Assembly: GCA_965541615.1 (NCBI GenBank)
Contig: CBEUCJ010000005.1
Location: 110,251-174,250 of the forward strand
Source of the DNA: an uncultured bacterium
Lineage (GTDB): Bacteria > Omnitrophota > Gorgyraeia > Duberdicusellales > CBEUCJ01
Direction of reading: 5' to 3'
DNA: 64,000 bases
Shown here: in pieces, positions 12,973-64,000 of the stretch
Numbering within the stretch: the stretch's first letter is position 1
Layout: each line of letters starts with the position of its first letter
The notes under the pieces: generated by a model
What the model was told of the DNA's origin: nothing
Seen by the model: only the letters and a program-made list of their open reading frames with translations
The model's database searches: none
Made by a program: the position numbers and the translations under genes

Positions 12973-12981
12973 AAGAAAATT

Positions 12982-13688: not shown

Positions 13689-13690
13689 AA

Positions 13691-17514: not shown

Positions 17515-17544
17515 GATATAACCCTCTTTGCTTAGGCTGTCAAG
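17515..17544 (-). promoter_or_regulatory. candidate sigma-70-type promoter (TTGACA-17-TATATC) in the 426-nt gap upstream of the rhodanese gene
   Basis: rc of 17539-17544 is TTGACA; 17-nt spacer; rc of 17515-17520 is TATATC. Confidence 0.25.
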
Positions 17545-17672
17545 AATTTATACAAAGTTATTTTACAATGCCTGAAATTAGGTCAGAAAGTAAAGGCATC
17601 TGATTTAATACCACCTAATCATTTAGGGAAATACATCTTTTAAAAGCTTTGCCTCTATTGGATTGGAGAGTT

Positions 17673-23727: not shown

Positions 23728-26700
23728 TTAGCTGAGGCAAGCTTTAAATTTTAAACAGAAAAGTTCACCTAACTTTTCTACTTCATAACCTTTTTCTCTT
23801 AATGCTTTTAAAAAGAGTTCAAGGTTATATTTATATCTTTCACATAGTTCTTCTAAAATTTTAATTATCTCTTTATACCTTTTTTCTATCTTTATAACCG
23901 TTGGGAAAAATTCTAAATCTATTTTGCCTTCTTCCCATCTGTAAATCGTGCATAAATTTGAAGGTAAATATATTTCTTTAAGTTGCAAAACTCCTCTGTA
24001 AATTTCATAAATACCAAAGATTAAGTCTTCTTCGGTAGGTAATGTATTTCCTTCTATTAGTATTCCTTTCTCTTTGAATACAAAAGTTAAGCTTTTCAGC
24101 TTCTTATAAATCTCAAATGGTGGAAAATGCAAAGATACATTGAATATCCTTCCAAAATCAAACTTTATATCTTTTTTATACCTTAACTCCTCAAAACTAC
24201 ATTCAATAAATTCTAAATTTTCAACTCCATAAAATCTTTTTGCAATCTCATAAGGATTAATAAGAATTTTTATTTCTTTGTTTAGTAAGATCTTCTCAGG
24301 CTCTGTCTTATCTATTATTTTAAAAAGACTTATATCTTTTAAACGCAACTTTCTATTAATCTCATTTATTAAATTAATTACTTGTTGGTAATCTAGTTCA
24401 TAAGGTGGCTTTAGTAAATTTCCTTTAAAAATTTGTTGCTCCCTTAATTCTTCTAATAAAAAAATCTCTTTCTTCTGATTAAAAACAAGCCAAAATACTC
24501 TCCAATTCTTTTCATATCTTATAGCTATCTGAGGTATAATTAAATCTATGCCATAAACTTGGAGTTGTGGGAATCTTTTTGCTAACTCTAAAGTGGTAGC
24601 AGGTACCAATAAATCATTTTCTTCATCTACACAACAACCTACCCCAATATCTACAAATGTGCCTTTAATATCTTTCCCATAATGAGCTTCAAACCAATCA
24701 TCGGCTGCTTTCAGTCTTTGAGGATAAGTAGTTAAAGGAACTGAACAGTTTTGAGGATTCAATTTGCAATTGAAAAGAATTATAGCTCCATTAAGCATGT
24801 ATAAAAGTCTTGCATAAAATAATAACTGTTCATCAAGACTTGAAAAAGTAAATTTTTGTGATTTGGGATCATATTCTACTATATGACCCCATTTATCACT
24901 TTTTATCTTAAACTCCTCAACAAATCTTGCTTGAGAAACATATTTATCAATAGAACTCATAATATATTGAATATCAACATTGCTGAAACCTTCGTTTTTT
25001 AAAAGCTTTATTACCTCTTCTGAATTTATTTTTTCAGCTGAAAAACCAGGCAGATTGGTGGCATACACACCTTTACTCGTTTTAAACATCTCTACCTTAA
25101 TTTTTAATCCTTCTTTTTTACTAAAATAATTTATAACTGAGCTTAAAAATAACAATGTTCCACCATATACAAAGATATCTATGATTCTAACTTTATTGTA
25201 ACCAGTAATTTTCTCTTTAATCTCTAACCATACTTTAAAAGCTATCTCTTTAAAACTTTTGTCCTCTTTCATTCTCAATTCAAATTCATTATTGAGCTCT
25301 TTGAAGAATCTTTCTACATTTACTTTATAGCTACCTAATCTATGTTTTTCTATACGACTCTTTAAATAACTTTTGAAAATCATATCTTCCATTTTTTTAT
25401 AAACTGATTCTTCAAACTGCTTTTTTAGAGAATTAGAAATTTCTTTTTCTTCTTCATTAGTTAAACCTATAAATTCTAAAGGGACTCCCATTTTTATTCT
25501 ACTTAAATAAAAATAAGTCTCATTTTCTGAACCTACATTTATCCCTAATAATCTAAGTATCTTTTTAGAGAGCAAATAAAACATACCATCACGCATAATA
25601 TAAATCTCTAAAGCTCTGTCTTGAGGTAACTGCCAAACTACATATGGTAATAATCCATTACATAAAACAAATACTAAACACATACTTTTGGTTTGAAAAA
25701 ACCTTTTTTGCACTATATTTTTTAATCTTTCTTTCTCAAAGTATAATTTTTTGAATTCTGGACTTTTTTTATCTAAATCTTCAGAAAGTTTCTTAAATCT
25801 TTTTTCTATTAAAGATACTATTTGATAAGTTGTAAGAGGTATCTTATTTTCAATAGCTTTTTTAACTTCAGGTTCTTTTAAAAATTCTTCAAATACTTCT
25901 AAGTATTTTTCATAAGCCCAATCTTCATCTTTTTTTAGTGGACTAGAAGAAAAAACATTATTCTTTATTAGAATAGAATTTATCCTCTTCACAATTTGTT
26001 CTACACGTTGCTTACTAATTCCAAATCTTTCTCCAATCTTTTGTAAAGTAAATTCTCTATATCTCTTTTTGAATTCTCTAAACTCTTCATAAGGAATCTT
26101 ATATTTACAGAAGGCAGTTTCAAAATCGAGTTTAGAAATTGGATGCTGGAGAAAGAATTTTCTTTTTAACCATAGTTTATAGATTTCTTTATGTCTCTCA
26201 TTTATCTTCAGACCATTTTCTTTTAACTTCTCTTCAAAAATCCTTACTGCTTCTTTGAAATCTTCTTCTATTTCTCTCTCTATTTCTTTTAAGTTAACAT
26301 TTATTCTTTCTCTATCTCTTTTTTCTCTTTCTTTAAGCAAGTTAAATAATACTCTATTTGGATTTAACTGTAATTGAAGGTCTTCTATACTTAATTCTAT
26401 CTTTTCTTTTCTTTCTTTCTCTTTTAAGTACTCTCTTATTGCTCTTTCTATAATCAGAGTAGCATATGGAGAAAACTTTATGCCTCTTTTGGGATCAAAA
26501 CTTTCTATTGCTAAAATCAAACCATGCCGGAATTTTCCAGTCCCTTTATAAGGACATCCAAAGGTCCCTATATTAATTAATTCTGGTAGTTCTTCTGGAG
26601 GTCTTTTAAATCTTTTCTTAATTACCCATTTAACTAAGGGAATATTTAAAATTATTAAAGCAATTAAAGCAGCTTTATTACCTTTGTGTAATTCCTCAAT

Positions 26701-29700
26701 AAGCTTATTTAATTCTTCTTCTTTAAGCTTTCTGTTTCCTACTACTCTTATCTGACTTCTTTGAAAATCTATTAAGTCAGGAATAATTTCTTTTATTCTT
26801 TTCCAATCACAAAAGGTATAAATTATTTCTTTTCTTTTTTTTCTTTCTAATGGTTTTATACCTGCAGCTTTTAAAGCATTATGCCAAGAACCAAAAAAGA
26901 AATAAGCATAATGAGGAACATCTCTATATCCAGCTTTCTGCCATGATACACTATTTCTTGGATCTTTAACTTCTGGAGGTGGATTTTTTAACCATTCAAT
27001 AATTTTTTCTTTTGTCCATTTTTTAACAGGAGAAGATGTTTTTTTCTCTCTAAAAATAGATACTATATCTTTACAAGAAACCTCGATCTTTCTTTCTATC
27101 TCTTGCCACAGATTTTGGGAAAGCAAATCTTTTCCTTTTTCTTTAATCGAATCAAAATTTTTCTTTATATAATTAAATCTTAATAAAAACTTTTTAATAA
27201 ACCAATCTCTGGCTTTATCTTCTAAAGAAGGATTAAATTCTCTTAAAACATTTATAAATTTTTCTAACATAAATTTTTGTTCATTAAAATCTGGTTCTTT
27301 AATAGTAAAACTACTTACAAAATCTATGTTAAATATTTTGAGAGGATTAAATTCTATTCTTAAATTTGAAGGAGATCTATCAGCTATTCCTATTAGATAA
27401 GCACCTAAAGAAGCTTCTGCTAAAGAAAAAGAAAGCTCTTTGATAAATAGTTCATCTTTAAAATAAAAAGTATAGTATTTGTAAAATTCTTCAAGATCCA
27501 TTTTGCCTACATATTCAAGGATAAAATAATCATCTTCCTCTTCAAAAGAAGGCACATAAAAACCTAAAATTTTTAAAGCTTGCATGCCTTGCTTTGCCCG
27601 GCAGTAAGGCATTTCTTTTATCACAACTCTTTTTTTACCGTGTAAAGTTTTTAATTCTATTCCTACTGTCAAACTCTCATTTTCTTTCTTTAATATACCT
27701 TTGAAAAATAAAATCTTTACATGAGAAGTGGAGTATTTTTTCAATAAAATTTCTTTAATATCTTTTAAAAGATCTTTAAAATTAAGACTTGAAGAAGCTG
27801 AGATTTTATTTAATATCTCTTCTAATGTGTAAAAAGGACAGAAGCTAAATTCTTCAATATTGTATCCATTCATTTTCAATATCTTGTATTCTCCTTCTAT
27901 CTGTTGAGCGTAAGAAGTAATTATTATTTTTTGAGAAGGCAAAATAAAAATGCCTGCTGTGTCTATTTTTGTATTTGGAGGTTCATCTATTTTTATATTT
28001 TCTTTTTTTATTCCTTGCAAGATTAAATAATCTTGAAGTCTCCTAACAAACTCTCTTTTTTCTCTTACTTTACCTACCATTAATACCTTTGTATCCTCAC
28101 TAAAAATTTCTTCATCAAAAAATATGTAATCTCTCCATTCTTCTTTTAAATTTTCTATCTGAGCTTGAGGTTTAATATGAGAAAAAAAGATCTTTTTATT
28201 TTTGAGAAAAACTATACAGATGCACTCAGTAAAGATATCTTTGAAAGGAACTTCTATCTTAAGAAAACTTGATTCATGGAAACAGATAAAATCTGAATTA
28301 GAAAATTCATAAAAATTTATTTTTCTTAATTTTTGAAGAATACTCACTAAAACTTTTTCTTTTGATTTCAATATTTTTGAATAGAGATTTTCTAAAGAAT
28401 TTATGTTAGGTATCTCTTCTTCAAAGAAATAATCATCTAATCTAATTAAAATCCCTCTCTTTTTTTCAGGAAGTCTTAAAAAGATATCTTCTTTTTCAAT
28501 CTTACCTGTAAATACAATTTTTTCTTTCTTTATCTCATAGACTGGACCAAAAGCTTCTAAAGTTAGATGAAATCTATTAGAAATTCTCTTTATCTTTTCT
28601 TCTAAATCTTTAAGTTGTGAGAAAATCTCAACACCATACTTTGCTGTAAGAGTTATTGCTATATCGATATCTGAATGAGATTTCCATTCTCCTTTTGCAA
28701 AGCTTCCAGTAATATAGTAATTTTTAATAATTCTTTCTTTTTGATAAGAATTTAAAAGATTGAGTAACTCTACAAATTTAAAAGAGATTCTTTTTAATGG
28801 AGAAGAACTAAAATGAGATGAATTTTTTACATAAAAAGATTTTACCACAAATACAGGATAACATATCTCTTTATATAAAATCTGTTCATAATATTCTTTA
28901 TACAAAATATCTCCAAAATTCCTTACAAAATTATCCAAATCTTTATCTTCATCAGAATCTTTTTTAGTGCTAAATCCTGTGATTATAAAATACTCAGTCT
29001 GGAAAAATCTTTTCATTGCAAATTCTACAGTCTCTTTGAATTGAGTTTTAGAAATGTTTATTAAAATAATATGAGGTCTTATACTTAAAGAGAGTTTTTT
29101 AAAATCTTCATTTATAAATTCTATATTTTTTACATTATTCTTAAATGCTACTTTTTTAGAAAGTTCTACAAGCTCTTTATTTATCTCTACACCATAAACT
29201 TTTTTAGCTCCTAACTTTGAAGCTATAATACATAAATCTCCTCTACCAGAACCTATATCCAAAATGATCTTTCCTTTAAAAATATTCTTAAATTTAAGCA
29301 TAACTTTGATGATAGCTATAGTAGAAGGATGTAGATACCAAGCACCTGATTGTAAGTAAGGTAAAAATATTAATCTTTTGGCAGGTTGAGCTGTGGGGGT
29401 AAAGAGTAGCCAGTCAATTACTACTAATTTTTTAGTCTCTCCTTCAAAAAGCTCTTTGTTTTCTATAAAATGAAAGATCTTATTTTTATCTGCAAAAAGC
29501 TCTCCTTTCTTTAAATCTAAAGAGATCTTTTCAAAATCTTCTTTAATTTCTAACTCTATAAACCTTATTCCTCTTTCATTTAAATTCTCTTTTACTATCT
29601 TCTTTTCAGGACCAGAACTTTTAGAGATCAGAATACATTTAACATTTCTCTCTTTTATTTTCTGAAAAGTAAAATCTAAGAATTTCTTTATCTTTTCTTT

Positions 29701-32700
29701 TATCTCTTCATTTAAATTTGAATCTCTCTCTGAAGTGAAATTAAGATGGAGTAAAGCTCCTTCTTTTTCTTCACTATAAAAAACTAAGATTATATCTCCA
29801 TCAGAAAATTTGCTTTCAGTCAAATCTTTAAAACCTCTACCCACACAGAGCATATTAGTTAAACCCGTAATAGAAGGAGAAATAGGTGTGTAAGAATCTA
29901 AACAATACTTTTTAATAGCTGAACTTGCAAAAATTACATCTTTCCAATATTTTTGCAGATAATTTTTATTTCTTAAATTTTCCAGAGTCTTTAAAATCTT
30001 TACAAAGAATTGGTAACTGCTCTTTGAAGTATTTACTTTTTGTTTAGTATTCCATCTTACTAACCAGAAAAGCTTATGGAGGAATGCAAGTGCAATTAAG
30101 TAAGGGAAAGATTCTAATTCTAAATTATTTAAAGGATGTAAAGAAAGATTTTGATAAGTATTTATTAAATTTATAAAGCTATCAAATTCTAATTTCTCAT
30201 CTATCTCATAAAGATCTGTTCTGGTCAAATCATAAGCTCTTATCTCTTCTCTTGCTGTATCAAAATCAAAGACTCCAACTACTTCTTTATTAGAGAATTT
30301 AAGATTAGACAGAGTGTAATCTCCATGGATAATAGATTTAGGTAACTTTAAATAAGTCTTTTGAAATTTCTCTTTTAGTTCTTCTATTACTTTTAATATT
30401 AAAGGATAACTTTTGATTATTAACTCTTTAAAAGGTGAATCTTTTTCTTCTTTTACTCTCTTATAATAATTTTGGAAACGAATTAACCTTTTGTCTCTTC
30501 CTCCTTTAAAATTCATCAAAGGATCACATTCTCTATACGCAGAAGCTCTTAATAAATTGCGAGGAGATAAGAGTGTATAATGGTGTAATTGAGATAGTTT
30601 CCTTAAAGCATCTTTAAATTGTGAGGAATTTAGTTCTTGCAGAGAAAGAGTTCTTCCTTCTATATAAGTATAAAGAAAATAAATATTGTTATTAAATTCT
30701 GTGAAAGGTAAATTATATTTGTTCAAAATTATTTTGGGTAAAGGAAAGTTGGGATCTTTCTTATTAAGAAAACTTATCAAATAGTATTCTAAAATAGCTC
30801 CTTTTTCATCCCAAGGAGATTTTTTAAGCACAAATTTTTTTGTTTCTGTAATGATTAATACTATTCCTGATATATTTGAATCGACGGGCTGAATCTCTTT
30901 TATCTTATCCAATTTATAATAATCTGAAACTCGCTCTGCTTCCTGTAAACTATCAAAATGACAGATTCTGTGTCTGTGAATCTTTTCTTCTCTACTGATA
31001 GATGAACTTGCTCTTTTTGCTAACTGTTTTTGGGTAGAAATCTTTGAAGTTAAATCTATTGAAAGAGGTCTTCCATCTTTATCTAAAATTGGAAATCCAT
31101 CTTTTGTTTGTTTAAATATTATTTTTATAGGTTTACCTTTTCTAACTATAACATCTACAACTGCATTAGAATAACGAGGAGATTGAAATATAACTTTTCC
31201 TCCCAAATATAACTGTCCCCAAGAATTTAAAGTAAAATTACAAATTTTATGGTTAGTTAACTTCTTTAACTCTTGTGGAGTAACTTTTTTGTAAAAATAT
31301 CTTTCTGTTTCTTTTGAATCTAAGTTGTAAATGAGACTGGTATATTCCCATTTATTCTCAACAGGCCAATAAACCTTTGTTATTATTGCTTTCTCTAAAC
31401 TCTCTCCTTTCATTAATAAATGTGCGTAAGTGCTTTTTGTCTTAGTATTTGTAATCCATTTTCTACCAGCAAAATATATGCTTTTATTTTTCAATAGAGG
31501 AACAAACTCTAACCTTAAAAGATCTTGAACAGATCTTAACAATCTCTCTAAATCTGAACAGAATATAGTAGTTAAAAATGAATCTAAAAGTTTGCCTCTG
31601 GCCTCATCATAAGCTAAAATGAGTTGAATGTACCTTTTTGCTGATATTAAATAAAGAGCAGTTGTAATACCTTTATAAACGAATCGAATGTATTCTGTTC
31701 CAGGTTCAGCATCTTTTAATTTTGCAGTTTTTTTACCATTACCTATCTTTACTCTCTTGTCACTGCTAACTCTTTCTATTAAAGCGATCTTATCTTCTGA
31801 TTTTTTTGGGTATGGATTAGCTAAAACATATCCGTATTTTCTAGCAATCTCTTTGACTTTAGATGAATCTAAAGAAGAACTTGAATTTCTTCTTTTAGAT
31901 TCTTTTCTTGCTTGGAAAACTACTCTTTCCATAATTTTTTCATTAAAATCATTATTAAAATCGATAGGACTGCTGGTCTTGTAAGAAGTAGATTTAATTC
32001 TTTCTAAAACTTCTATAGGAAAGCCTTGCGTGCGGATTTTTTTCCATATTTTATTTAACTCTTGGAATATCTCTTCTTCATTAATACTATTTATCTTTAA
32101 TGTCTTGTGTAATTTTCTTATTTGAACTTTCCATTTTTCAGGATTAAATCCTTTTAAGATTAAGAGTGTTCTTTTTACAGCTTTAACCTTTTCATCAGAA
32201 TTAGATGAGTTAATATGTGAGAGACATCTATTCAATAATCCATTGAGTTCAAAAGGATTAATAAAAGAGCCAGAGGAAAAATAGAATGAGATTAGAATCT
32301 TTTCTTTTAAAGGAAATATTAACCATCTTCTTTGGAGATAAAAATCATCTCCTTCTTTTATTACTTTAGCATTTGTATTATATTTTTTGAGATAAAAATT
32401 CAGTGTCTTAATAATTTCTTTTAACACCTTTTTATCAAAGTAACCTAAACCTACTCTTACATCTAAATCTCCAAGTAATTCGTAAGGAACTTTTCTGTCT
32501 CCTAAAGCAAGGATACTTCCAAAGAGTTCTAATTCTATGTTTAAACTGTTCTCTGTTTCTTTGAGAATATCTTTTAGCAGTCTTACATTTAAAAATTTAT
32601 CTTCAAATATAGAAGAACTGGAATTCTTTTTGAGAATCTCTTCTAACACTTTTCTCACAAGGATCTTTATATTTGTTTTTTCCTTTAACTCCTCTTGAGA

Positions 32701-35700
32701 AACAGAAAGTCTTTCAATTAAAGAATTAATCTTTTCAGAAGGATAGTTCTTAATTTCAAAGAACTTTTCCTTTATATCTAACTTAAGAGACCAACCTTCT
32801 TTTTTTAGTTGATAATGTAAATCTCTAAATCTCTCTTCAAATTCTTTCCTTTTCTCTTCAAAAAATTCTTTTTCTTTTTTCTTTTTTTCTTTTTGAAGCT
32901 TTTTTATTTTTCGGAAGAAACTTTTTGAAGATTTTCTTCTTCTCTTACATAGTTTTTGAAATACTTCTTGAAATCTCTCGTAAAATTCCTGTAAGATTTT
33001 TTTATACTCCTCATAAACCTTCTCAAACTCTTTATGGACTTCTTCAAAATCTTTACTAAATCTCTTATAAATTTCTTCAATTTCTTTTACAGGATAAAAT
33101 TTCTCTATTTCTTTTAAAATAAAGATTAAGATTATTTTCTCTTCATTTTCTTTTATCTTTTTTATTTTTTCCTCTGCATCTTTAACAAAATTCTCAAATA
33201 CCTCTACTCTTTTCTCTCCTTGAAGAGCCTTTTTAAATTTGAGAAGCTCTTCTCTTTCATTAAATAGGTACTTTATTATTTGAAAAATCTTTCTAACATT
33301 AACAGTTTGAGGTTTTTTCTTATACTTTACATCAACAACTACACGATTTCCTTTATCATCCAGTATAGGGTAACCTTCTCTATCTTCAATAAACTTTACA
33401 AAACGTTTCTTTCCATTTATTACTTTAGCCTCAACTTTAGCTTCAGGAAACTGACTAATGCTAAGCCAGTAATCTCCTACTTCTAAAATTCCCTTTTTAT
33501 CTGTTCTAATATTGGAAATAATATAGCTCTTTAACTCAGTGCCATCTGGAAGGATTAGTTTACCACAACTCAATTTTTCAAAAACACCAATTAACTCTCC
33601 TTTCTCAAAAGATTCAGGAGAGGCGTTTTCAGGTACTTTATAAATTAAAGATAATTCTTTGGTAATTGAAGGTTTTCCTTCTTCATCTTTTACTGTAACA
33701 GATAATATAAATGCTTTTTTTCCTGTAGGATTCAAAATTTTAATAATATCAGCTCTCTTATGACTGTAAAGTTTGCCAAAATTTACCCAATACTTACCAC
33801 CGAGATAAAGTAAACCACATTTATTTAAACGATAATTATGGATTTCATAATCTTCATTTAGCAGATTGAATTCATCTTCAGATAGCTTTTCCCAGAAAGA
33901 AGTTGTGTACTTTCTAATAGATTTTTTCCAAACAAGGGCAAATTCTACATCTAAATCTGTTTCTAAAGAAAATACTCTAAAAATGATCCCTTCTTTAACT
34001 ATTAATCCTACTTTCTCATTTTCGTGTGCAGCACCAAAATGTGCCCAAAATCGTGGTTTCTTAGGCAAACTACCATCGACTAAAGGTCTTCCTCCTCCTA
34101 TCCATAACATGCCTTCTTTTTTTAAGTAGGTATAAATAGTAACATCTTTATACTTAACAAATTTTCTAAAAGGAATTTTCCCAATATAAACATCAATAAT
34201 TTCTCCTGTTTTATTGTCTCTAACCTGCAAAAATTCTTTTAAGAAACTATCCTTTAAGAAAAATATTCTCATAGGTATACCGTCTTTCATCTCCAATTCA
34301 TACTCCAAGTTAGCATAAGCTTCTGACTTTATGTGGGATTTACCTAATCTTAACTCTCCACTTTTAGGAAGCTTTCCTTTAATGATTACATGCCCTAATT
34401 TTTTTATATACTCTTGCTTTTCTCTGTGAGGTATCTCATCCTTATTTATTACTTTTATTTTCTCTTTACCACCAAAAGACCTCTCAATCAATTTCTCCCA
34501 GATATACCTTCTCAATTCTTTTTTATTTAGATCTATTCCTCCTTCTTTTGGATGAAAAATTGCTTTCTGCAAAAGGATTATTCCTTTTTCCCCTTTATTG
34601 AGAAGTTCTTCTACTTTTTCTTTTGTTATCTCTTTTATAAGTGAACTAGAGGAAGTTAGCTCTTTAATTGTCTCTTCTACTCTATTGGTAATCTTAAATA
34701 AATTTAAATCATCTTCTCTTATATATCTTTTCTTTAAAAGCGCCTTTCTTATCCATTCATGCCATCTTTGCCAGTAGTCTTCACCGAACAATATTATCTT
34801 GCGCTTCCTTGTTTTCTTAGTTTGGATTAAAACGAGAATTTCAAATAAAATATCTAAAGTCCTAAAATCAGCAGGAAAGAATACAAAACTATCACTGTGT
34901 TTTGTTAAAGCTATTTTCTGTAGGAAAATATAGTTCAGTTTAAGAATTAAATTTGTAAATACTGAGAAGTTGTATCTTTTTGTGACTACTCCTACAGATT
35001 TTGCATTAATTAAATTTTCAGTTTGAGCTTTCTTTATTCCTCTGCCTAAAGCTTGATAGATTCCACTTTTAGATAAATGCAATATATTAAAATTTTTCTT
35101 AGCTAAATAAAAACTTAACTCTTCTGCACAGTTCCCATTTCCAATAGCATAAAAGACTTTATTTATCTTCTCTATTTCTTCTTTCATCATTTCTAATTTT
35201 TTCCTAATGAACAAAGAGGAAGAGGATTTCTCTGCAGAAGAAATATAAATTATAGAAAATTCTTTTGATTCTTCACTGAAAAGAGAAGGTAATAAAGGTC
35301 TCTCTGTTTTATAGATAATTTTAAAACCTGCTTTTCTGACTATTGCTGAAAGTTCTTTTAATCTGTAAAAACCTTCTGCTAAATTTTTGGTATTTTGAGA
35401 AGAGGTAAATTTAGGATTAATAATAATCAATTTACCTTTAGTTTTAAGAACCCGTTTAACTTCAAAAAGTGATTTGAAAGCATCCATATGGGGGAGAGAA
35501 TAAGGAAATATTACTACATCAAAAAAATTAGATTTAAAAGGAAGATGATGGACATCGGCTACTATTGTTTTTAAATCTTGGTTTTTGACAGCCTTTGCCA
35601 TTTCAAGTACAATATTCACACAAATAATTTGGTTATTTCTTGCAAGTTCTTTTTCTAACTCTCCTCTTCCGCTACCCACAGAAAGAATTTTTTTATTTTT

Positions 35701-50700: not shown

Positions 50701-53700
50701 GAAAATGAAATGATAATGGCTCCATCCCCTTTTATTTAGTCTCTGCTGAATTCCAAAAGGTTTAGAAGGCATATAGTAAACATCTCTAAGATTGGAGATA
50801 GTTTCAAAAGGATCATCAGTAGCATACCCACAATCTAAAAGAAAAATTCTGCCTTGAGAGTCTACACCATATTGGGTTATAAAACTATCATGAACATAGA
50901 TTCCCCTTCTTAAAATAGCTCTATCTAACTCAATTTTCTTCTCAAGAAGTTTTTCTATCTTTTGCCAATCTTTTTCATTGAAAGCTAAAATTAAAGCTTC
51001 ATCTAAAGGAAGAGTTTTAATCTGCACAATAACATTTTCCCATTTCTTCATTTCTCCTTTAATCTTAATATATAAACTCAAATTCATAATAAAATCTGCT
51101 ACTAAACCACTTAATTTTTCTTTTGCCTTTTGATAACCTCTCAAAGTAAATTGCTGAAACTCATCTTTAGGAATCTTTATAACAAAATTTAAATCTTTTC
51201 TTTTCAAAACAATTGTCTGCCCTGAGTAAATCAAATCTTCCTCTGTGAAGTTGTATTTCTGTATTTTTTCTTGTATTTCTACTGAATTCAAAGAAGAGGA
51301 GGCTGATTGAATTCTGGAATCTTTATTTTCATCTTTCTTAAAAACTATTCTTTCATTTTTTCTTGGAAAAAGAATGAAAGAACCGGTCATTGCTAAAGTT
51401 AAAAGCACTTTTTTACCAATAGGAGGACCAATAATAATTAAAAATACAGGAGCTAATCCATTCCATAATCCATGTGCAAGAATAGGACATTTTAGAGATT
51501 TAGTCTTTACATACAAAGAAGCATAGATAATACCTGGAAAGAATTGGTAAACAGGGATACAATAACCTTTTGAAATATGAGACAATGCAAAGACAATTGA
51601 AGAAATAAATATACTCTTTTTTACACCAATATTTAATTTGTTTATAAGCAAACGTCTAAATATCCATTTTCTAAATATTATTTCTTCTATTATAGGCGCG
51701 AGCACTGTATCTTGAAGTAAAATTACTCCTATAACCAAAATAGGATTTTTAATGATCTCAAACAATAAGAGTCCATACAAGAATAGATGAATGTTATAAA
51801 GGGTAATAACAACTGCTAATTCTTTTAGAAAAGAATTTTTATTCAAGTTATCTATAGCACTGCTTGAAGTCAAAGAAAGAGATTTCTTTTCTTTTCGCCA
51901 CCAGTCTTCAGTAATTTGTTGAAAACCAATTTTTTCAAAAAATTCCTCCCTGCCACGTACAACCTTTGCCCATAGAGGAATTTTGCCAATTTTATCGGTT
52001 AATTTTTCAATTAAAAGTTTAGCTATTCCTTTTCTCTGATAAGAAGAATCTACTTCTATTAAAGCAATTATAAATCCTTCTTCTTCAAAACTCTTTTCTT
52101 TAAATAATCCGATTTCTCCTATTTTAAAAATGTCTTTTTTATACCCTAAAAGGAGACCTACTACTTCTTTTTCTATCTTTGCTACAAGAAAAGTAATCTC
52201 TTTATCTTTTGCATTACAAAATTCCATTTCCCATACTAACCTTCTAAAATAACGCTTTTTCTTAAACCATTCTTCAAATACTTTATTTATTTCATTAATA
52301 TCTTTTATCTGGATAATCTCTATATTCATTGATGAGGAAGAAACAAGATCAGCAAACTCTTTATTGAGTCGACTAATAAACCAATCTTTACTTTCTACAG
52401 GATACCCTTTATTTAGAAGTTGTTTAGCTAACTGAAAACATTCTTTACTGATACCTAATGAACTTGAACCAAATTCTGGGCTCTTGTAAGGTTGTCTATA
52501 AGGAGGTGTTGTAGAAGGAATAAATGGTTTAAATTCAATATTGCAAGAAGGATTTAACAATTCTTCAGCAGATGGGAAAAATGGTCTGTTTGATGGTAAA
52601 ATAGCTCCAGATAATACTTGCCATAATACAGAACGTATATCAGGCATTTTGTGTTGAGTGTAAAATAAGGCTTTAAGAGCATTTTCATAGCCAAAGAATA
52701 CTCTATCAAAAAGTTCCTTAAAATAATCTCTCTCTTTTGAAGGTAAAGATCTAAATATTTCTAAAATACTTTTAATAGTTTGCTGTTTGTAAAATTTTAT
52801 CTCACTAAATATCTCAGAATAATACATTTTGATTTTGTCTTCGGCTATTTTCATCATAAAGGGCACCAATACATGGAGAGTTATCTTTTTTGTATCAACA
52901 TATTGAGAAAGGAATATAAAAGGCTTAATTATTTCGTAGAGTTTATCTCCAGAAAAAGCACAGTCATCGATTACCAAAATATCTTGAATTCTTTTCTTTT
53001 TAATTTTTTCAACGAGTTGATTATCAACAAAATATGGCTGTATTTCTCTAATATTTACAATAAAAGCATTTTCAGGAAGTAATTCTTTTTCTACAAGCAA
53101 ATCTCTTATCCAAATATCACTTTTCTTATTTTCAGGAGTGCTTTCTTGAAGAATGAGATAAGATCTATCTCTTATTTCATCTTTAAATCCTTCTCCAGCT
53201 AACTGTAAGTTTAATTCAAATTCAAATTGATCAACATATCTAATATTTTTAACAAGGAACTCAGCTAATTCTTTAGGAAATCTCTTAGGCTGAAGAGATA
53301 TCCATTCTTTAGCTTTTTCTTCATCTATATAAGCATCTTCAAAAGGACGAGGAATGATATTTTCTGGAGATATTTTTCTTTTATTATTAAGATAAGTCAT
53401 AATAATAGCTGATTTACTTTTCTCAGAAAGCTTTTTATTTCTTTCTATTTCTTTAATTGCTTTTAAAATTTCTTGAATTCTTGATAATTCAATGGGAGAA
53501 GCAGCTTCTACTCTATTTCTTCCTTTATTTTTTGCAGTGTACAGAGCTTCATCTGCTTTCTTAATCATTTCTTCTATCTGATCAATAGAGTTAACTTTGC
53601 GTGTAGTTAGTCCTATACTTATTGTGATCTTAATAGAACCTTTTGAAGTCTTAAATTCTTTTTCTTCTACACTCTTTCTTAATCTTTCTGCTACTTTCAA

Positions 53701-56700
53701 AGCAGATTTCTTAGAAGAGAATGGAAGAATTAATATAAACTCTTCTCCTCCCCATCTACATTTCAAGTCTTCTTTTCTGCATATTTTTCTTATAATCTCT
53801 GCTAACTCTCTTAAAATTTGATCTCCTATTTCATGTCCATAAGTATCGTTGATTTCTTTAAAATGATCTATATCTATTACTAATACAGAAATTGATGCCT
53901 CTAAAAGTTCTCTATCTTTTTTCCATTTTTTAATTACTTCTTTAAATCCCCATCTATTTAATAAACCTGTTAATTCATCACTGTAAGCAAATCTTAAAGT
54001 GACTTTAGGAATTTCTAACATTTCTTTTATAAACCTTCCAAGGACAAAGATCTCTTCTAATATTGAAGAATAAAATTCAAATTTTTCTTCACACTCTTTT
54101 ATCTTATGGAAAGGTGTGAGGAGAATTACATCTGCATAAATGCGAGAAGAATGAATAATCCAGAAAAGTAAAGACTTTACCTTTTCTTTGTCTCCATTTG
54201 CATATTCTACAGCGTCTTTTTCCCAATTAGAAAAGTTTACTTGAGTAGAATAATTTTGAACAAGCTTTCCTCTATCTCTAATAAGTAGTAATATTTCCTT
54301 TTCTTTTGATATCCATTCTATTCCAAAGCTCTCTTTTTCTTTATTATTTAATTCTATTATCTTATGCAAAATACCTTTATTAAGGTATTCGTATAATCTG
54401 GAAGCAAAATAATCTTTTTCTATACACTTTGCTTTTTGAGGTTCATCTTCATAAGTAGACTTCCTTAAAGTAGCTATTCTTGCTAGAGTCTTCCATTTTA
54501 AAGTAGGAATATACAATCTGTAATAATAGCCACTTAAACCTAATATTTCTTTAAAAAGAGAAAGTATAAATTCACAATATTTTCTTTCAAACTCTTCTTC
54601 AAAAGCTCCTCTTACTTCTTCTCTAAACTCTTTAAGTTTTTTAGAAAGGAGAAGTATTATTTGTTGAGTTTCTTTATTTAAAGAAGAGCTGGTTGCAAGA
54701 AGGTTGCGTATGCTCTTTTCTAAAAGCAAATTCAAATCAGATGCAGTTTGAAAAGAGGACTCATTTTTAAATTTTTGAGGAGGAGCATTTTGAGTATATC
54801 CTTTAATTAATTGCAAGAATCTATAAAAACTCTTTCTCAAAGAAATTTTTTGGAAAATTGAACTACTTGCTTCTCCTATAATTGAAGAGAGGCGATCACT
54901 TATTAATTTAATGTCAACTTCTCTGGATGAATTAAGAAAAGGAATTAAATTCAAATCTATTTTTTTACTATTTACATTTAAAGAGATGCTTATTCCTTTC
55001 TTATTCATTTCAAATAAAATAGGCTGCCAATTTCTCTTAAAGAATTCTTTTAAGACTGAGGTTTTTCTCTTATTTATAATCTCTTCTGCATATCCTCTAT
55101 TCCTCAATTGAGTAATTTCTTCTGTAATCTTTTCTAAAATTTTTTCTTCCAAAGTTAAAAGGATTTTTTCAAAAACATTAAACTCCCAGATCCCTGCAGA
55201 AATTAAAATAAGCTCAAACTTCTTTAAATCTGATTTTTGAAATGCACTTAAAGTATCTTTTACAGTGTTCTTTAAACAACAGCTAAAGGCTCCTCCTAAA
55301 ATGTATACTTTTTGGATATTATAGAAAAATTCATATTCTCCCCATTGGCTGTTTATTTCTAAGATTTCAATTTCTAACTCTTTTAAAGGTAATGATGAAA
55401 ACATAGAGTTTGTTAAAACTATTAAAGGTGAATTTCTGTGTTCTAAAATAATCTTTCTATAGATTTCTTTATGTGCTTCAATAGGATGGGTCAAAACAAT
55501 AACTTTTTCTGCTAAAAGTTGTTTCTTTACCCTTTCTGCTATTGGACTACTAGAAAGAGTCATCTTTTTTGTATTAACATGGGATGAATTTCCCAGAGAG
55601 CTACTTGAAGAAAGAAATTCAAAGCTTTCAAATGTTCCTATAAATATACTTTTTTCATTTTGATTCCATTCCTCATAATTTTTGTAACAAAGCTCTTTTT
55701 CTTTTTCGTCTCTCATCTTTAAAGCTATCTTTTCTAATTCTTCTAACTTATTTCTTATTCCTCTTTCTTCTATCAGTTTCTTAGCTGTTTCCAAAACCTT
55801 AAAATCACCTGCTAAGTGCATACTCGTAAGGATAATATTTTTAGCTGTTCTTAAATCTTCGTAAGAATCCTTATTAAATTTTGCTATTTCTTGAATACTT
55901 ACTTTCTCAAAGTCTACTTCTGTTCTTTCTTCTTCAGGCAAAATATCTTCAGCAAAGGCTATTGTTTTCTCTATAGATAATAATGCATTTGGAGAGACTT
56001 TTTCTTTATCATAAATTTTTTCTTTATCATAAATCATAATTATATCTATATCTGAACCATACATTCTTTCTCTAGTCAAAGGATTAAATCTAATTTCATT
56101 GTGAGCCATACCTATAGATAAATCTCCTGTTAATAATAAACAAACGCCCTCTAAAGGAAGGAAAGTATAAGAGAGAATATCTTTTGCTAACATTCTCTTT
56201 TTAATATTTACAAATTCTCTTTCTTTTCTTAATTTATCTGTAATTATTCTCATTCTCTCATCATTCTTCAATCCCACTACGGAATAGGTATGAAACTCTC
56301 TAAGAATACTTGGAGAAATTTGAGGAATAATTTTTCCTTCCTCATCTCTTTCTATTCTTAAATATCTTTTTCCTTCAAAAACTATCTCAATCTCTGAGCA
56401 TTTTTTACATATCTGCCATACTCTTACAGCACCAGCTATAGTTTTTACATCTAATTTTTCAAACAATTGCTTTCCTAAAAGAGGTTGTTTAGATAAAATT
56501 TGTTTAATTAACTTTTCTGAAATAGGAGAAGACCTTTTTTCTAAAATGGGACTAGAACTCTTTTTCTTTAAGAGCCAAATTCCTTCTCCATAATATTCAT
56601 TGAGTTTATTTAATAGAGAAGTTAAAGGAGAGATTATAATTAGAAATTCTTTATCTCTGTATCTTCTTGTTTGTCCAATAGTAAAATCAACAGCAATTCC

Positions 56701-59700
56701 TGTTTTTTCTATAAGAAAGAATAAGAAATGATGTTCTTCAAAATAAGTTTGGTCAATATCTCTAAAACTGCCTATTATTATCTGAGGATCAAATTCCTTT
56801 AACTTTTCTGCCAGCCATAATGTAACGATTTCACATTTTCCTTCAACATCACCTTTTGTAAATAGATTTACCTCATTAACTAACTCTAATATTTTCTTTA
56901 AGAGTTTCTGGTGTTCAGCAGAACTCTTTCTGATTGCTTCTTCCAAATCCTTTCTATCAGAAATTATTAAAGAAGAAGAGGAAATTGTGAGTTTGTAGAT
57001 AAAAATCTCATTATTTGAAAATGAGAGAATGTAATCTAATCCTCTTTGTTTTATCAATCTCTCTATTCCAAAATTTTCCAAAGAACCAACTAAAGCAAGA
57101 TAAAAAATTCCATTTACATTAAGATAAAAAGGTAAAATTTCAATTAATTTTCTAAGATGCTGAGTTAACTCTTCTTTAGAGAGTTCTGATACTCCTTGAC
57201 GTGAGATAATTCCAAAATCTGTTTCTAACCCTGGTGCATAATGAATAATCACATCATATTTTTTGTTTTTGATTTGAGGAGTTTTAAAGAAATCTCCCCA
57301 AACAATAATGGCATTCTTTACATCTCTTAATGTGAGTAGAGTATTTAAATAAGCAGAAAGTTTGTAATCTATAGCTGTAATCTGGGTGTAACCTTTGGTA
57401 GCTAAAGCATATCCAATAATTCCAGTCCCTGAACCTAAATCTAAAATTTTGATATCTTTTGTTTTGAATCGTTTTATATCCTTTAAGACGAACTCTATTA
57501 ATTTTCTTGTAGCAAAACTATGAGGAGGAAATACACCTTCTATATAAGGAATAAACAATTGAGTTTTTCCTATTTCTACTTTTTCTAAAGAAATTTTAAT
57601 AGGTGTGTATTTTGAAAAATATAAACTTAAAGGTAAATCAAATTTCTTTGATAATAATTCTCGCCAGTCAATAAAGTAAATTCTTCCTATGCCTAAGTCT
57701 GAATATACAATTATTCCTAAGATTATTTCTTTATCAGCAGCAAAAACACTTACTTTCTTTGTTCTTATTCTGTTAATATCTATTGCGACTATATCTTCAA
57801 GAAACTTTATGTTCTTAGAGAAGAGCTCATATAGAGATTTGCTTTCTTTTTCTAATCTATCTAAAGAAATAGAACTAGAAGAAAATTTAGCAAGAAAGAT
57901 TTGTCTGTATTTTTTAAATTCTTCATATAAATCTTTTTTTGTTCTCTCTTTAATTTCTTCTATATCAATTTTTTCTTTATCAGAAACTACCTCAAGAAAT
58001 TCTTTCATCCAGGGATACTCAAAATATTTCTTTTCTGCTTTCTGAAGGATCATATTATACAATTCTTCAGCCTCTTTAAATCTTTTCTCTCCCAATAAAT
58101 AAATAACTTTCCAGCTTAAAGCTTGCAACTCTTCCTCTTTCATATTACATTCCCTACCAGTTTCAATACATCTATTAATATTTTCCTCTGCCTTAAAATA
58201 ATTACCTTCCAAAAATCTAAAAATACTTGCTTTAAAAAGAAGTCTTAATTCTTTTTTTCTTTCCTTTATTTCTTTATTAATTAAACTGCCTTCTTCCAGC
58301 AGTTTAGCTGCTCTTTTAAAATCTTCCAAAAGAAAATAAATATCTGCCTTCCATTTTTTGCATTTAGCTTTGATTTCTGCCCATTCTTTCTCTCCATAGA
58401 TTTTTCTTTTATAAAGCATTAAACCATCTTTTTCTATCCTCTTTAAGTTCTCAAAAAGAATACTTACTTTTTCTTTTCTTTTTTGGGATAATAAATAATC
58501 AACAAAATTCCAATGAGCAGAGGTTCTTCTTTTTATAGCTTTTTCAAATTCTTCTAACTCCTCTTCCAGTTGGGCGCTCTTAAGAGAGTAATGACCTGCT
58601 TCATAAAATTTTTTATTCCTAAAATATTCTAAAGCTTTTCCATAAAACTCTGAAGCTAAGGATTTCATTACTTTTTTCTTTTCCTCTTTATATTTCTCAA
58701 CTTCTTCTTTTCCAGAAACTTTCGCCTTTCTTATTCCCTTCTCACAAACAGAGATAATCTTTGAAAAGGTAGAAATAATCCCTTCTTTATCTTTCAGTTT
58801 ATGATAAATATGCGTAATCTCAAAAAGTCCTGCAATTGCTCCTTTTATATTTCCTCTCTCTAAATCTAAATTCACAGCTTTCTGGAGATATTCTAAAGCT
58901 TCTCTAAATCTTCCTAATCTCTCATAAACTAAACCTATAAAAGTATAATCTTTAGCTATCCTTTCTTTATTTTCTAATTTTTTATGGATCTCCAATATCT
59001 TAAATTGAAGTTCTAAATATTTCTCCCAATCTTTCTCACGATAAGACATTGCCTTAAAAGTGTAAAGTTTTACTACCATCTCTAACAAATCTTTTCTTTC
59101 CTTTTTACTTTTTAGTCTTTCAACCCACTCTTTACATAATCTATCTACTTTTTCATACTCTTCCTTTTCCATTAAAATCTGAATTTTTCTCTTAATATTC
59201 CTTATATTCTCTTTTTTACTTAAAGGACTGCTGGAATAAGAAAAGCAATTCAGGATTTGATTCTTCCAGAATTCAGGATTCTTTCTATTGAGATTAATTT
59301 GAATTACTGGGCTGGAAGTTGTTTGTAAATATAATTCTTCTAAAAATTTCTTTACTGCTTTTATTGCTTCATCCTCAACGTCTTTAATAAGCCTAAAATT
59401 GGATTTTCTGCCTTCTAATCCTCTAAGCATATCTTTTATATTAGTAGCAAAGTCCATACCTACAGGACCATTTTGTGCAGTAACAGCTACAGCCCTAAAT
59501 TCTTTATCATCCCAAATTAAGTACGGGGAACCTGAATCTCCAGGAATAGAATGAGCTCCTACTAATACAACATTGCCTTCTTTTAAAGGTAACAAAAAGC
59601 CACTAGATACAATCTCATTACAACCACTCACTAAAACAGCTAACTCACTTTCACTAAACTTAAGCTTTATTTTAATTGGTAAAAGCTTTCTATCTTGCAC

Positions 59701-62700
59701 TTCTTCTTTTCTGAGAACGAGTATAGCTAAGTCTCCTCTATCAGGAGATGAGAGATGATGGTGCAAAAGTACTTTAGCTACACCTATCTTTTCTGAAAGG
59801 TGAGTATTAGTTTGAAGTAAAACATTTTTAACACCATAAACTACATGGGTACAGGTTAAAAGTATATACCAATCTCCAACTTCACCAGCTACAAAAGCAC
59901 TACCTCTCTTTTCAATCGTTAAAATACTCCTTGAAAATCCTCCATTTTGCTTTTCTTGTTTAGCCTGCATTTCTAATTTTTTGCATTCATTTTTGCATCG
60001 AGATAGTTTCTCTTCTAAATTAATCCTTACTTGAGTGAACTCAGCAGGATTATTAGTCTGGTATAAGATTTGTTTAAGGATAAAGATTATAGTATCAGGG
60101 TCTACTCCTGCTTTTTCGAGTATTTTGGAAAGACGAATAATCTCTTGAAATGTCTGTATATTTATACATCTCAAAACATTATTTAGCTTTTTAAGATACT
60201 TTTCTAAACTATTAACTATTTTTCTTAAATATGATGCAAACTCAAGCTCAATAATCCTAATAGGAGAACTACTCAGCATCTTACTAAAAGTTTCTAAGTA
60301 TCTTTCAAGATGTTTAGTTACAAGAAATTCTTTTCTTACCCTCTCTTGTGCTTCTTTTCCTATTTTTCTGGCTAACTCATTATCTTTAAAAAGTTGTAAG
60401 ATTTTAAATTTTGCTTCTTCTTTATTTTCTACTAAAAATCCACTTCTTCCATTTTCTATCTGAACTTTTATTCCTCCACAGTTTGTAGCTACAACTGGCT
60501 TTTTCTTCCACATAGCTTCAGTAACTACCAATCCGAACCCTTCTTTTTGTGCTAAATGCACCACCAAATAAGCTGCTCTCTGTAAAGCATTTACCTCTAA
60601 AGCATTTTCTTTTCCTTCACTTTTTAAGCGAAGAAGGTGAATATCTTCTTTAAATTCATATTCTTCTCTTAAAGATTTGAACATCTCAAAAATAAATAAT
60701 CCTTCAGCATCATCACGAGGGAAATTACTTGCCAACACCAGTTGACAATCTATATCCTTTCTAATCTCCTCAAATATTTTCATTGCAACTTCTTGACCTT
60801 TAAAAGGATCAAAACGAGAGACTTGAAGAATTATGGGTTTGTAAGGATTAATTTGATACTTTTCTAATACTCTTCTAATTAATTTTTGAGGAATCTCTTT
60901 ATTTTTGGGACTTAAAGGATTAATACTTGCAGGTATAATTACTATTTTCTCATTAGGCAAATCTTTTTGGACAAATTCTTCTGTATGAAAGACTACTTTA
61001 TCTGCTAAACTGACAAACTCATAGATAAATTTCCACACTTCTTTGTTAGGAGAAGATAAATCTATATGGCATCTCCAGATGATTTTAATATGAGGATACT
61101 TTTCTCTTATCAAAGGAATAATCCCTGCTGTCTGAGGATCATGGCAGATTACAATATCTAAATCTTTAAAAGCTCCTTTTTTCTCCAAGTTTTTAAATTC
61201 CCTCTGAGATATAATCTTATAGAATTCCTTCTCATCTTCACCAAGCTCTACTCTGTTTCCTTGTAGACCATTGTGAAGCTTCTTTTTAGTGAAATTAAAA
61301 AATTCACTGCTTCCTTCAAATACTTCCCAACTTGCTTTTATACCGACTTTGCCAAAAAGAGGAACAAGATTACCTAAAAGTTCAGCTACCCCTCCTCCTT
61401 CTTTGGTAGTATTTATGTGTAAGACTCTTAAACCTTTTAAATTTTTATATTTTTCTTTTAATCTTTGAATCTGCTTTTCTATATACAACCACTCATATAC
61501 ATTTCTTAAAGACACAAATACATCTTTTTTATCCAATTTATCTAATAGTCTTATTATTGAAGATGAAGAAACTTTTTTTGCTAAAGTAGTAGTTTTATTT
61601 ACATTTGAGTAATAATCTTTATCTAATTCAATTTTAAAAATTTCTAAAGCTATCAGATATTTTATTAATTCTTGAGGATACAATTTAAAATATTTGATGC
61701 TTTTAGATTGAGCTTCTTCTTCATTTAATCCTTTAATAAGGTGGGAAATTTCATGGAGAATAACATCATTAATGAGGGTTTGGAAGATTTGAGATTTTTC
61801 TGATTCCGGAGGTGGTGCTCTTGAAGCTAAACTTTCTAAAATCGCTATTTTTTGAGGTACAGTTACTATATCTGCCAATTTACCAGTTTTAGTCTTATCA
61901 ACTAAAATTACTAATTTTTTGGGAGCAATTGCTAGGTTAAACTTTTCAAAACTATTCTTTAAGTAATAATTGTAAAAGATTTTTTTCTGTTTGGAAGCAG
62001 GTTTTTGGTAAGGTTCTTTTAACCTTGCTGGATACTCAAATTGCACATGTTTTAATTCTTTTTCTAAATCCTTTTTCTTTCCAAAGCAAGCTATAACTTC
62101 TTCAGTTAAAAACCAAGCCAAAATCCAGAACTTTATTAATGAAGGTTTTAGTGCTTTTGTTCCTTTAATCTGCAAATCTATAAATTCTTCACTTCCTGCT
62201 TCCTCAGCTGTTCCTGGCAAGAAGAATGCCAAATCTACATCTAATTCTGGGTTTTCTAAAGCAGTTATAACCACAATTTTTGCCTTTGCTTTTTTAGCAG
62301 TCTCTATTAATTTTTTGATTCTCATCTTGCGAGAAGAAACACCAATAATTATTACTAAATCACCTTTTTCTATTCTTGCCTGAACATGTCTTGCACCTGC
62401 AACAGTTGCGATAATTCCTAACTGCTTAAGACGAGTCATAAAAGATAAAGCTACTTGATGGGACACTCCATCACCCAAAATATAAACTTTAGAAAAAGAT
62501 GTAGGCTTAAAAAGAAGTTTAAATCTCTTAAAAATAGGAGGATTTCCAATCTTTTTTAACATCTTGTAGAACTTTTCTATTTTTTCTTTTGTTACTTCCT
62601 TTCTAAATTCTTCACTTCCTGTGATTTGTATGGCTTCTAAATGGGTTAATATATAATTCTTTAATGTTTTAAATACCTCTTCTTCAGTTTTACATTCATT

Positions 62701-64000: not shown

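Follow-up and report, generated by a model that had tools for sequence, protein, structure and literature searches.

The window examined here, a stretch of 64,000 nucleotides from an uncultured Omnitrophota bacterium (assembly GCA_965541615.1, contig CBEUCJ010000005.1, positions 110,251 to 174,250), carries on its minus strand a giant open reading frame (ORF; 23728-63999) whose predicted protein is punctuated by short runs of three to six serines (Ser), and it is these runs and the units between them that we describe. Counted from the first listed in-frame start (23728-63867), the ORF comprises 13,379 codons, divided by the runs into approximately 32 units, and its frame stays open for 44 further codons (63868-63999) up to the window edge, so that the N-terminus lies outside the window and the gene exceeds 40 kb and 13,400 amino acids (aa). 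Residues upstream of aa 1 (KECAETAKSYNKKLYLD..., 63868-63999) match the middle of P0024, P0040 and P0027, in each of which an additional HPS-like domain is present, indicating that a further unit precedes the first one seen here. The GC content of the region is approximately 28%, and the protein is rich in Lys (13%), Leu (11.5%), Glu (10%) and Ile (10%), with 6.3% Ser.

By Pfam and PDB-sequence homology, the giant ORF is a head-to-tail chain of approximately 30 units that match complete stand-alone proteins. Its first part encodes HPS (OMPdecase family), SIS-SIS (PHI-like) and TPR units, and the chain further includes two TreT-type GT1 glycosyltransferases, at least five S-adenosylmethionine (SAM) methyltransferases, GGDEF, PRTase-CE and GNAT domains, an Rce1-like CPBP protease, an M48 peptidase motif, an S2P-like membrane unit and two to three LOG (cytokinin riboside 5'-monophosphate phosphoribohydrolase-like) domains, whilst the C-terminal part carries an APH/YtaA-like kinase, a Pol-beta-type nucleotidyltransferase and sigma-70 regions 2-4. 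A crude hydropathy scan identified approximately 12 hydrophobic segments, mainly in the CPBP and S2P-like units, the chain otherwise appearing largely soluble, and the part of the ORF within the window showed no signal peptide.

A regular-expression scan located 31 Ser runs in the giant ORF (16 SSS, 12 SSSS, two of five residues and one of six), extending from 25942-25950 to 63286-63297. A sequence-only reading of the window had reported approximately 30, and all nine of the examples it located are runs in the frame of this one minus-strand ORF; the spacing it gave, 150-750 aa, was too narrow, the actual range being 17-1308 aa with a median of ~330. The giant protein, when shuffled 2000 times, yielded 3.1 ± 1.8 runs (maximum 10). 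SSS was its most over-represented tripeptide (49 overlapping occurrences versus 3.4 expected), with SSP second (15 versus 1.6), whilst runs of other common residues showed no comparable enrichment (K 0.7x, L 0.55x, E 1.3x). The residue following the run is Leu, Ile or Pro in 29 of the 31 cases (n = 13, 9 and 7, respectively) and, where it is Pro, the next residue is Ile or Leu. The motif is S(3-6)-[L/I/P], often SSS-[S/P]-[I/L].

The sequence-only reading had allowed that such runs might be equally frequent in other proteins of the genome. Across the 19 further ORFs of the window (6826 aa in total, Ser 6.1%) five Ser runs were counted, one of them followed by Ile, and within reach of this 6.8-kaa control the runs do not reflect genome-wide compositional bias. 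Chance, composition or an artefactual ORF, whether from a wrong genetic code or a misassembly, can be given next to no weight as an explanation: the region is AT-rich and the protein of low complexity, but the runs are enriched ten-fold over shuffles, the motif is missing from neighbouring ORFs of equal Ser content, and chance could not leave 40 kb free of stops at 28% GC. The ORF also recurs at 98.5% identity in independent assemblies, the proteins next to it are recorded as exact copies from a 187-kb contig, the reading frames of relatives are open across whole contig pieces of 8-16 kb, and under table 11 the genes around the ORF have ordinary lengths.

Ser codons within the runs (TCT, TCA, AGT, TCC and AGC, thus both TCN and AGY) do not differ in usage from those elsewhere in the giant ORF (chi-square p = 0.36), and the Leu, Ile or Pro that follows is encoded by many different codons. 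As the sequence-only reading had proposed, the repeat is therefore one of protein and not of DNA: mixed Ser codons with the same usage in and out of the runs indicate a motif selected at the amino-acid level. A DNA-level repeat was rejected since the codons are mixed and no DNA word is shared, and rare-codon pausing at the junctions on the grounds that Ser codons are used alike within the runs and beyond them. Internal translation starts after the runs were also rejected, as one run alone is followed by ATG and the others by CTA, TTA, CTT, CCN or GCT, which are not start codons. Several modules had been thought to begin with Met directly after a linker; this applies only to SSSS-MNIEIIQ, at the start of the GNAT unit, since in KKMTLSSSP the Met precedes the run.

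The homology searches defined 21 envelopes covering 28.5% of the giant protein. None of the 31 runs falls inside an envelope, where random placement gave a mean of 8.8 and never 0 in 20,000 trials, and ten of the 21 envelopes end at most 30 aa upstream of a run (random mean 1.4, maximum 7). Individual units show how closely the runs follow native termini. Pyrococcus TreT (PDB 2x6q, 416 aa) aligns over residues 26-413 to the second TreT unit and stops 3 residues before the Ser6 run; the alignment to RpoS (338 aa) reaches residue 333 and ends exactly at the run at aa 12640-12642; and residue 37 of a YtaA-type kinase (PDB chain 2q83) aligns 36 aa past the run at aa 10954-10956. In an exhaustive HMMER search of 1.84 billion representative sequences, dozens of stand-alone TreT proteins of ~410 aa aligned between two runs from residues 10-20 to 395-415, and in the multiple alignment they start and stop at the run positions. 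The suggestion that whole genes had been captured was thus supported, with stand-alone homologues (TreT, RpoS, the YtaA-type kinase and LOG) starting or stopping within a few residues of runs. An AlphaFold model of aa 1-420, built from a small alignment, comprises confident HPS and SIS domains joined by a stretch of low predicted local distance difference test score (pLDDT <50 at residues 192-206), in which the helix at 179-192 ends at the run and, after coil, the next helix begins at residue 201.

The claim that the runs lie between domains therefore stood; the wider claim that they mark nearly every module boundary did not, as runs are absent from several boundaries, namely those between GGDEF and PRTase-CE and between SIS-SIS and the HExxH module, and that on the N-side of the second TreT. 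Judged by homology, the Ser runs appear to delimit protein-sized units, some of them multi-domain, and not every domain boundary.

From the N-terminal side of the window, with all coordinates on the minus strand, the first run (SSSS, aa 191-194, 63286-63297) separates the HPS unit from the unit composed of SIS-SIS (PHI-like) and the HExxH module, and the second (SSSS, aa 767-770, 61558-61569) separates the HExxH module from TreT. The HExxH module (61588-62034, aa 612-760) has the pattern 'YPARL...TGK(L/I)AD...(S/A)RAPP...LINDxIxHExxH' and no Pfam match, is 37-80% identical in the giants of several Omnitrophota (P0001, P0116/L010, P0051, P0100, L008 and L012), and may be a zincin-like protease specific to Omnitrophota giants. 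RAPP was considered as further punctuation and rejected, being part of this conserved module and present one or two times per protein. The first TreT unit ends at SSS-P (aa 1199-1201, 60265-60273), followed by SSS-P at aa 1545-1547 (59227-59235), SSSS-I between a TPR-containing unit and a methyltransferase unit (aa 1996-1999, 57871-57882) and SSSS-L after the latter (aa 2296-2299, 56971-56982). A domain-free stretch (aa 2300-3062) then carries SSS-P (aa 2437-2439, 56551-56559), SSSSS-L (aa 2753-2757, 55597-55611), a further SSS-P 14 aa on (aa 2772-2774, 55546-55554), SSS-I (aa 3001-3003, 54859-54867) and, before the GGDEF and PRTase-CE unit, SSS-L (aa 3060-3062, 54682-54690). No homologues of this stretch were found; a 3,062-aa query against an index of 5.8 billion proteins gave one weak match, with low-complexity words swamping the candidate list, a profile query (A1) in the same tool gave no match, and scanning genomes with 4,651 aa as the query was equally fruitless.

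Beyond the PRTase-CE domain, SSS-L stands 58 aa past its end (aa 3801-3803, 52459-52467), SSSS-M immediately before the GNAT unit, which begins with that Met (aa 3843-3846, 52330-52341), SSS-A between GNAT and the Rce1-like (CPBP) membrane protease (aa 4001-4003, 51859-51867) and SSS-L after the latter (aa 4190-4192, 51292-51300). SSSSS-L follows the unit with the M48 motif (aa 5364-5368, 47764-47778), and SSSSSS-I (aa 6671-6676, 43840-43857) lies 3 aa past the end of the second TreT (aa 6668). Next are SSS-I (aa 6728-6730, 43678-43686), SSS-L (aa 6954-6956, 43000-43008), SSS-I before the membrane unit with HEFAH (aa 7292-7294, 41986-41994) and SSS-P (aa 7764-7766, 40570-40578). Three membrane-type metalloprotease signatures occur in the one ORF: HEFAH within a hydrophobic helix, in a hydrophobic cluster at ~41640-41970 (aa ~7300-7410) that we read as site-2-protease-like; the hydrophobic cluster of the Rce1-like CPBP protease (51292-51858, aa 4004-4192); and, in a third unit, the M48 motif HEIAH at aa 5249. 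Very short 'units' of 14-56 aa between consecutive runs (55555-55596, 52342-52458, 54691-54858 and 43687-43839) may represent what is left of units since deleted, or else small peptides or paired delimiters.

In the C-terminal half, SSSS-I lies between a methyltransferase and LOG, whose homology begins 8 aa on (aa 8092-8095, 39583-39594), and SSSS-L follows the LOG-like unit within a duplicated segment (aa 8494-8497, 38377-38388). SSSS-L recurs 30 aa past a methyltransferase domain end (aa 9548-9551, 35215-35226) and 3 aa past a LOG domain end, as the second copy of the duplicated junction (aa 9739-9742, 34642-34653). These are followed by SSSS-I (aa 10416-10419, 32611-32622), SSSS-L (aa 10662-10665, 31873-31884), SSS-I where the APH/YtaA-like kinase unit has its native N-terminus (aa 10954-10956, 31000-31008), SSS-P between a PRMT-like methyltransferase and the nucleotidyltransferase (aa 11687-11689, 28801-28809), SSS-L after the nucleotidyltransferase unit (aa 12025-12027, 27787-27795) and SSS-P directly at the C-terminus of the sigma-70 unit (aa 12640-12642, 25942-25950). 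The sigma-70 unit itself (regions 2-4; 25951-26526, aa 12448-12639) aligns to RpoS residues 134-333, and a sigma-70 factor tethered in a protein of >1 MDa would be odd unless released.

Relatives of the giant gene allowed the conservation of the runs to be followed and, as the window contains no marker gene, also point to the taxon. An independent assembly (L001) carries the C-terminal 2,604 aa of the ORF at 98.5% identity and keeps the run before the kinase. At L001 residue ~1864 the sequence reads SSSS-A-LKK, where the window (25939-25950) has SSS-P-LKK, so that run length and S/P position evolve quickly whilst the motif class is retained. Six further relatives (P0022, P0023 and P0024, 81-89% identical at the aa level in shared units, together with L005, L007 and L011) derive from a metagenome-assembled genome (MAG) titled Candidatus Omnitrophota bacterium isolate AUK132, which has giant-gene fragments on contigs JAGGWS010000034.1 and JAGGWS010000051.1. 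More distant relatives come from Omnitrophota AUK026 (L008), an Omnitrophota single-amplified genome, a Guaymas MAG labelled candidate division Kazan, which we take as a binning label (L009), and metagenomes (L012 and L013). The closest relatives are apparently from hydrothermal sediments.

The sequence-only reading had pointed to orthologues as a place to look for conservation, and the Ser runs are indeed kept at the same module ends in the Omnitrophota relatives. The SSSS between HPS and SIS is kept in P0024, and the run at the C-terminus of the first TreT in P0022 and P0023. The run between the HExxH module and TreT is kept as SSSS, SSS or SSP in P0022, P0023, L012, L008, L009, L013 and P0100, and the HExxH module likewise terminates in SSSS, SSS or SSP across relatives that are 45-81% identical. 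In L008 (5,437 aa), SSS (17 versus 2.2 expected) and SSP (11 versus 1.3) are the top tripeptides and lie outside Pfam domains, and SSS is also the top tripeptide of L007 and L012, with fewer copies. The neighbours of a conserved unit, meanwhile, differ between relatives. TreT is flanked by Ser runs in the window, P0022 and P0023, and the unit upstream of it is the HExxH module in the window, an unidentified unit in P0022 and an MFS-like transporter (MFS_1 Pfam match) in P0023. Since TreT and HExxH units keep their Ser runs next to differing neighbours, units have been shuffled whilst the delimiter was retained. L012 (Ga0190286_1000019, 105 kb), 74-81% identical in the shared module, has almost no other units in common with the window, indicating that unit content turns over very fast between relatives; its residues ~4400-4800 comprise a long HEAT-repeat array and a phosphoglucomutase unit.

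A different motif takes the place of the Ser run in another lineage. P0025 (= L006; 4,210 aa), which fills the whole 12.6-kb contig JAOAET010000011.1 of GCA_026416665.1 and is a chain of trehalose-metabolism enzymes (TreT, ROK, trehalose 6-phosphate (T6P) phosphatase and GT20), contains nine DGG tripeptides versus 0.6 expected, each after K, R or N, and P0127 contains four versus 0.4 expected. The DGG sites bracket the SIS-SIS-HExxH unit at junctions equivalent to Ser runs, with DGG in both P0025 and P0127 at the position of the HPS/SIS run (aa 191-194), and they also occur ~20-90 residues past the TreT, T6P phosphatase and GT20 units. The two motifs are mutually exclusive (31 Ser runs and no DGG in the window giant, nine DGG and one SSS in P0025), and the codons for DGG vary in L006. 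[K/R/N]-D-G-G thus occupies the Ser-run-equivalent junctions in this lineage.

An internal duplication of 1.82 kb (37044-38865 versus 33317-35130, 90.6% nucleotide identity) became apparent only after the protein was split at its Ser runs, as whole-protein self-BLAST had given the self match alone. It comprises the C-terminal part of the LOG-like unit (99% aa identity), the SSSS junction, in which the codons are the same in both copies, and ~520 aa from the start of the unit that follows (70% aa identity), and this uneven identity suggests gene conversion or recent partial re-copying. The duplication, which carries its own junction run, and the shuffling of units with runs at both ends would both suit an origin of the runs as scars of unit insertion or as recombination handles, left for instance by microhomology and without a role in the protein; many of the runs are, moreover, pyrimidine-rich TCT/TCA repeats that could slip or pair. 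We nevertheless regard such an origin as highly improbable, given that TCN and AGY codons, two or three positions apart, occur together in the runs, which share no DNA word and show ordinary Ser codon usage, that the residue after the run is encoded by many codons and DGG codons vary too, and that the end-points of the duplication lie inside units and not at Ser runs.

Taken together, the Ser-run motif very probably serves as a delimiter between whole-protein units. Several points weigh against this. As only ~29% of the protein is homology-defined, many of the placements 'between domains' are inferred; a single-sequence AlphaFold model of aa 2300-3062 was uninformative (mean pLDDT 37.7); L012 has fewer runs than the window giant (seven in 4,823 aa); and tripeptide punctuation is not detectable in the distant Omnitrophota enzyme-chain giants P0001, P0116/L010 and P0154.

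The tethering of dozens of unrelated enzymes, which the sequence-only reading did not recognize, has a precedent, since giant multi-enzyme ORFs of Omnitrophota are known (bioRxiv 10.1101/2023.11.21.568195; PMC10066038). By inferred taxon, size class and domain mix, the object described here matches this 'Archaeovorin' type (West-Roberts et al. 2023 preprint, Seymour et al. 2023, Kizina et al. 2022). Its relatives are titled Candidatus Omnitrophota; its frame is open for at least 40.3 kb in the window, beyond the >20 kb by which Seymour et al. define giant genes (West-Roberts et al. use >90 kb); and it shares glycosyltransferases, many SAM methyltransferases, peptidases, GGDEF, the HEAT repeats found in the related locus L012 and the 'YPARL...RAPP...HExxH' module common to the Omnitrophota giants P0001, P0116 and L010. 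Accounts of the published giants stress many transmembrane helices; in the part seen here, ~12 hydrophobic segments accompany mostly cytoplasmic-type enzymes. The published giants are also credited with extracellular adhesion or cell-wall-degrading roles and with N-terminal C39/S8 and SecA-like domains, and the window giant differs in including a sigma factor. The 13,379 aa present gave no match to a NUDIX, glycoside hydrolase or SecA domain (Pfam E <= 1e-3); NUDIX and glycoside hydrolase domains could reside in the N-terminal part of the protein, which lies outside the window. Neither Ser-run nor DGG punctuation is mentioned in the full text of the two Omnitrophota giant-gene preprints and the Nature Microbiology survey or in the wider literature searched; what is new is the delimiter grammar and its lineage-specific alternative, the giant multi-enzyme ORF itself being already known.

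Poly-Ser linkers of secreted carbohydrate-active enzymes (CAZymes) in Saccharophagus, Cellvibrio and Teredinibacter are long tracts, often of tens of residues, that join a catalytic domain to carbohydrate-binding modules (CBMs). Their likeness to the runs described here, which the sequence-only reading had drawn, extends to mixed-codon Ser runs between independently folding units of a multi-domain protein and no further: here the runs are of 3-6 residues, have a fixed next residue, recur ~30 times in one protein and join unrelated cytoplasmic-type enzymes, a sigma factor and membrane proteases. No CBM was found in the part of the giant ORF within the window (Pfam/PDB homology), and with neither tracts of ~10 or more Ser nor a secreted catalytic-CBM architecture the CAZyme class was rejected. 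Natural HPS-PHI fusions, which occur in archaea such as Pyrococcus, resemble the first two units of the window, HPS then SIS (PHI-like), and P0137 (406 aa), a two-domain fusion of this kind, aligns across both. In the window, however, the junction bears the same SSSS motif as ~30 unrelated junctions, and the pair lies within a chain of >13,000 aa.

The layout is comparable to that of polyproteins, such as those of viruses, polyubiquitin (...RGG|M) and the double-glycine leaders cut by C39 peptidases, in which a short motif recurs at the junctions of complete units. By analogy, the comparison would extend to a motif that differs by lineage (SSS+[LIP] versus [K/R/N]DGG) whilst unit boundaries are unchanged. 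Polyproteins are cleaved, which for the present case is a proposal, and to our knowledge chromosomal bacterial polyproteins of ~30 unrelated enzymes are not an established category.

On this analogy the Ser-run motif may be a processing signal, and the giant protein a polyprotein cut at or beside the runs, a reading that we favour as a working proposal, though at less than even odds. The Ser run would be an exposed recognition and cleavage signal, a lineage-matched protease would cut at or next to it, and cutting would release cytosolic enzymes, a sigma factor and membrane proteins in fixed stoichiometry, with DGG as a double-glycine version of the same cleavage logic. Processing is favoured by the uniformity of the motif at ~30 junctions and its wholesale replacement by another in a different lineage with boundaries unchanged, and by the mixture in one chain of soluble enzymes that are normally oligomeric with multi-pass membrane proteases and a sigma factor. 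C39 peptidases canonically cut at Gly-Gly, and domains of the C39 type, as well as S8, are reported N-terminally in other giants of Omnitrophota; processing by the giants' own C39 or S8 domains has already been proposed, at cleavage sites yet to be located, and likewise favours this reading.

Other evidence tells against cleavage, and much of it suits an uncleaved alternative, in which the run is a passive hinge or insulator that ends a C-terminal helix, caps the next one (Ser as N-cap, Pro at N1), adds a few flexible residues and lets the units fold and work independently within one megadalton chain; this is the main rival, and only slightly less probable than processing. We know of no protease specific for Ser runs, and nothing ties any of the protease candidates in the chain (CPBP, M48, S2P-like and the HExxH module) to the motif, which also speaks for a hinge. 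Pro, which follows the run in 7 of 31 cases, is a poor P1' residue for most endopeptidases, and a cut made exactly after the run would, where Leu follows (13 of 31), leave a bacterial N-degron, whereas a Pro or aliphatic residue in this position suits the start of a helix better than a protease P1' site. Ser and Gly are classic flexible, helix-breaking linker residues, so that both SSS and DGG could be passive hinges. The helix that stops at the first run in the AlphaFold model, with coil and a new helix beyond it, fits such a hinge, the K/L/E/I-rich composition makes helix read-through across junctions a plausible hazard, and the variation in run length from 3 to 6 and the interchange of SSSP and SSSS between close relatives suggest loose constraints. 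A hinge, however, needs no uniform motif at ~30 junctions and leaves the clean, unmixed switch to [K/R/N]DGG elsewhere unexplained. Moreover, a linker joining oligomeric enzymes would be expected to exceed 3-6 residues, it is difficult to see how a sigma factor or multi-pass membrane proteases could function when tethered in a chain of ~1.5 MDa, and other enzyme-chain giants do without such a motif.

The remaining genes of the window lie mostly on the same strand as the giant ORF and include a radical-SAM protein, a TPR protein, a GT2 (AglJ-like) glycosyltransferase and an STT3-like protein. A complete chemotaxis cluster directly downstream of the giant gene region (6294-19646) encodes CheA, CheW, two CheC, CheD, CheR, CheB, a CheY-like protein and two methyl-accepting chemotaxis proteins (MCPs); the syntenic relatives L001-L004 lack one further MCP and a protein with four rhodanese domains that the window encodes (13797-17246). 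The GT2 and the STT3-like oligosaccharyltransferase, encoded ~20 kb away from the giant ORF, bear on a third role for the runs, as Ser clusters that are O-glycosylated or phosphorylated so as to protect the junctions or regulate neighbouring units. Clustered Ser residues in exposed linkers are the usual O-glycosylation substrate in secreted multidomain enzymes, and the giant itself carries kinase-like and glycosyltransferase units. Such modification is nonetheless highly improbable, as the units are of cytoplasmic type with no signal peptide seen, STT3 enzymes act on Asn sequons and not on Ser, no dedicated modifying enzyme co-varies with the motif, and DGG, which has no hydroxyl residue of the kind a Ser run offers, could not share this function at equivalent junctions.

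Returning to processing, the broader claim that an apparently hydrothermal Omnitrophota clade makes dozens of ordinary proteins as one chromosomal polyprotein cut at lineage-specific motifs is at present doubtful; if true, a cellular organism would be expressing genes in the manner of a virus, and its punctuation would evolve together with the specificity of its protease. Characteristic of Omnitrophota are giant ORFs of 20-400 kb, and according to the main preprint on them the cleavage points are unknown, which blocked even their computational dissection. The Ser-run junctions are the first concrete candidates for where these giant proteins hinge or get cut. They provide a rule for splitting giants for annotation and structure prediction, precise peptides to seek in proteomes, either as neo-termini or as junction-spanning peptides, and a handle for matching a protease through co-variation, such that the question of whether giants are cut, and where, becomes directly testable. 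Ultimately, if cleavage is true, this would be a cellular polyprotein system of unprecedented scale, and if the chain remains uncleaved, the motif would show how ~30 unrelated enzymes are insulated within one chain.

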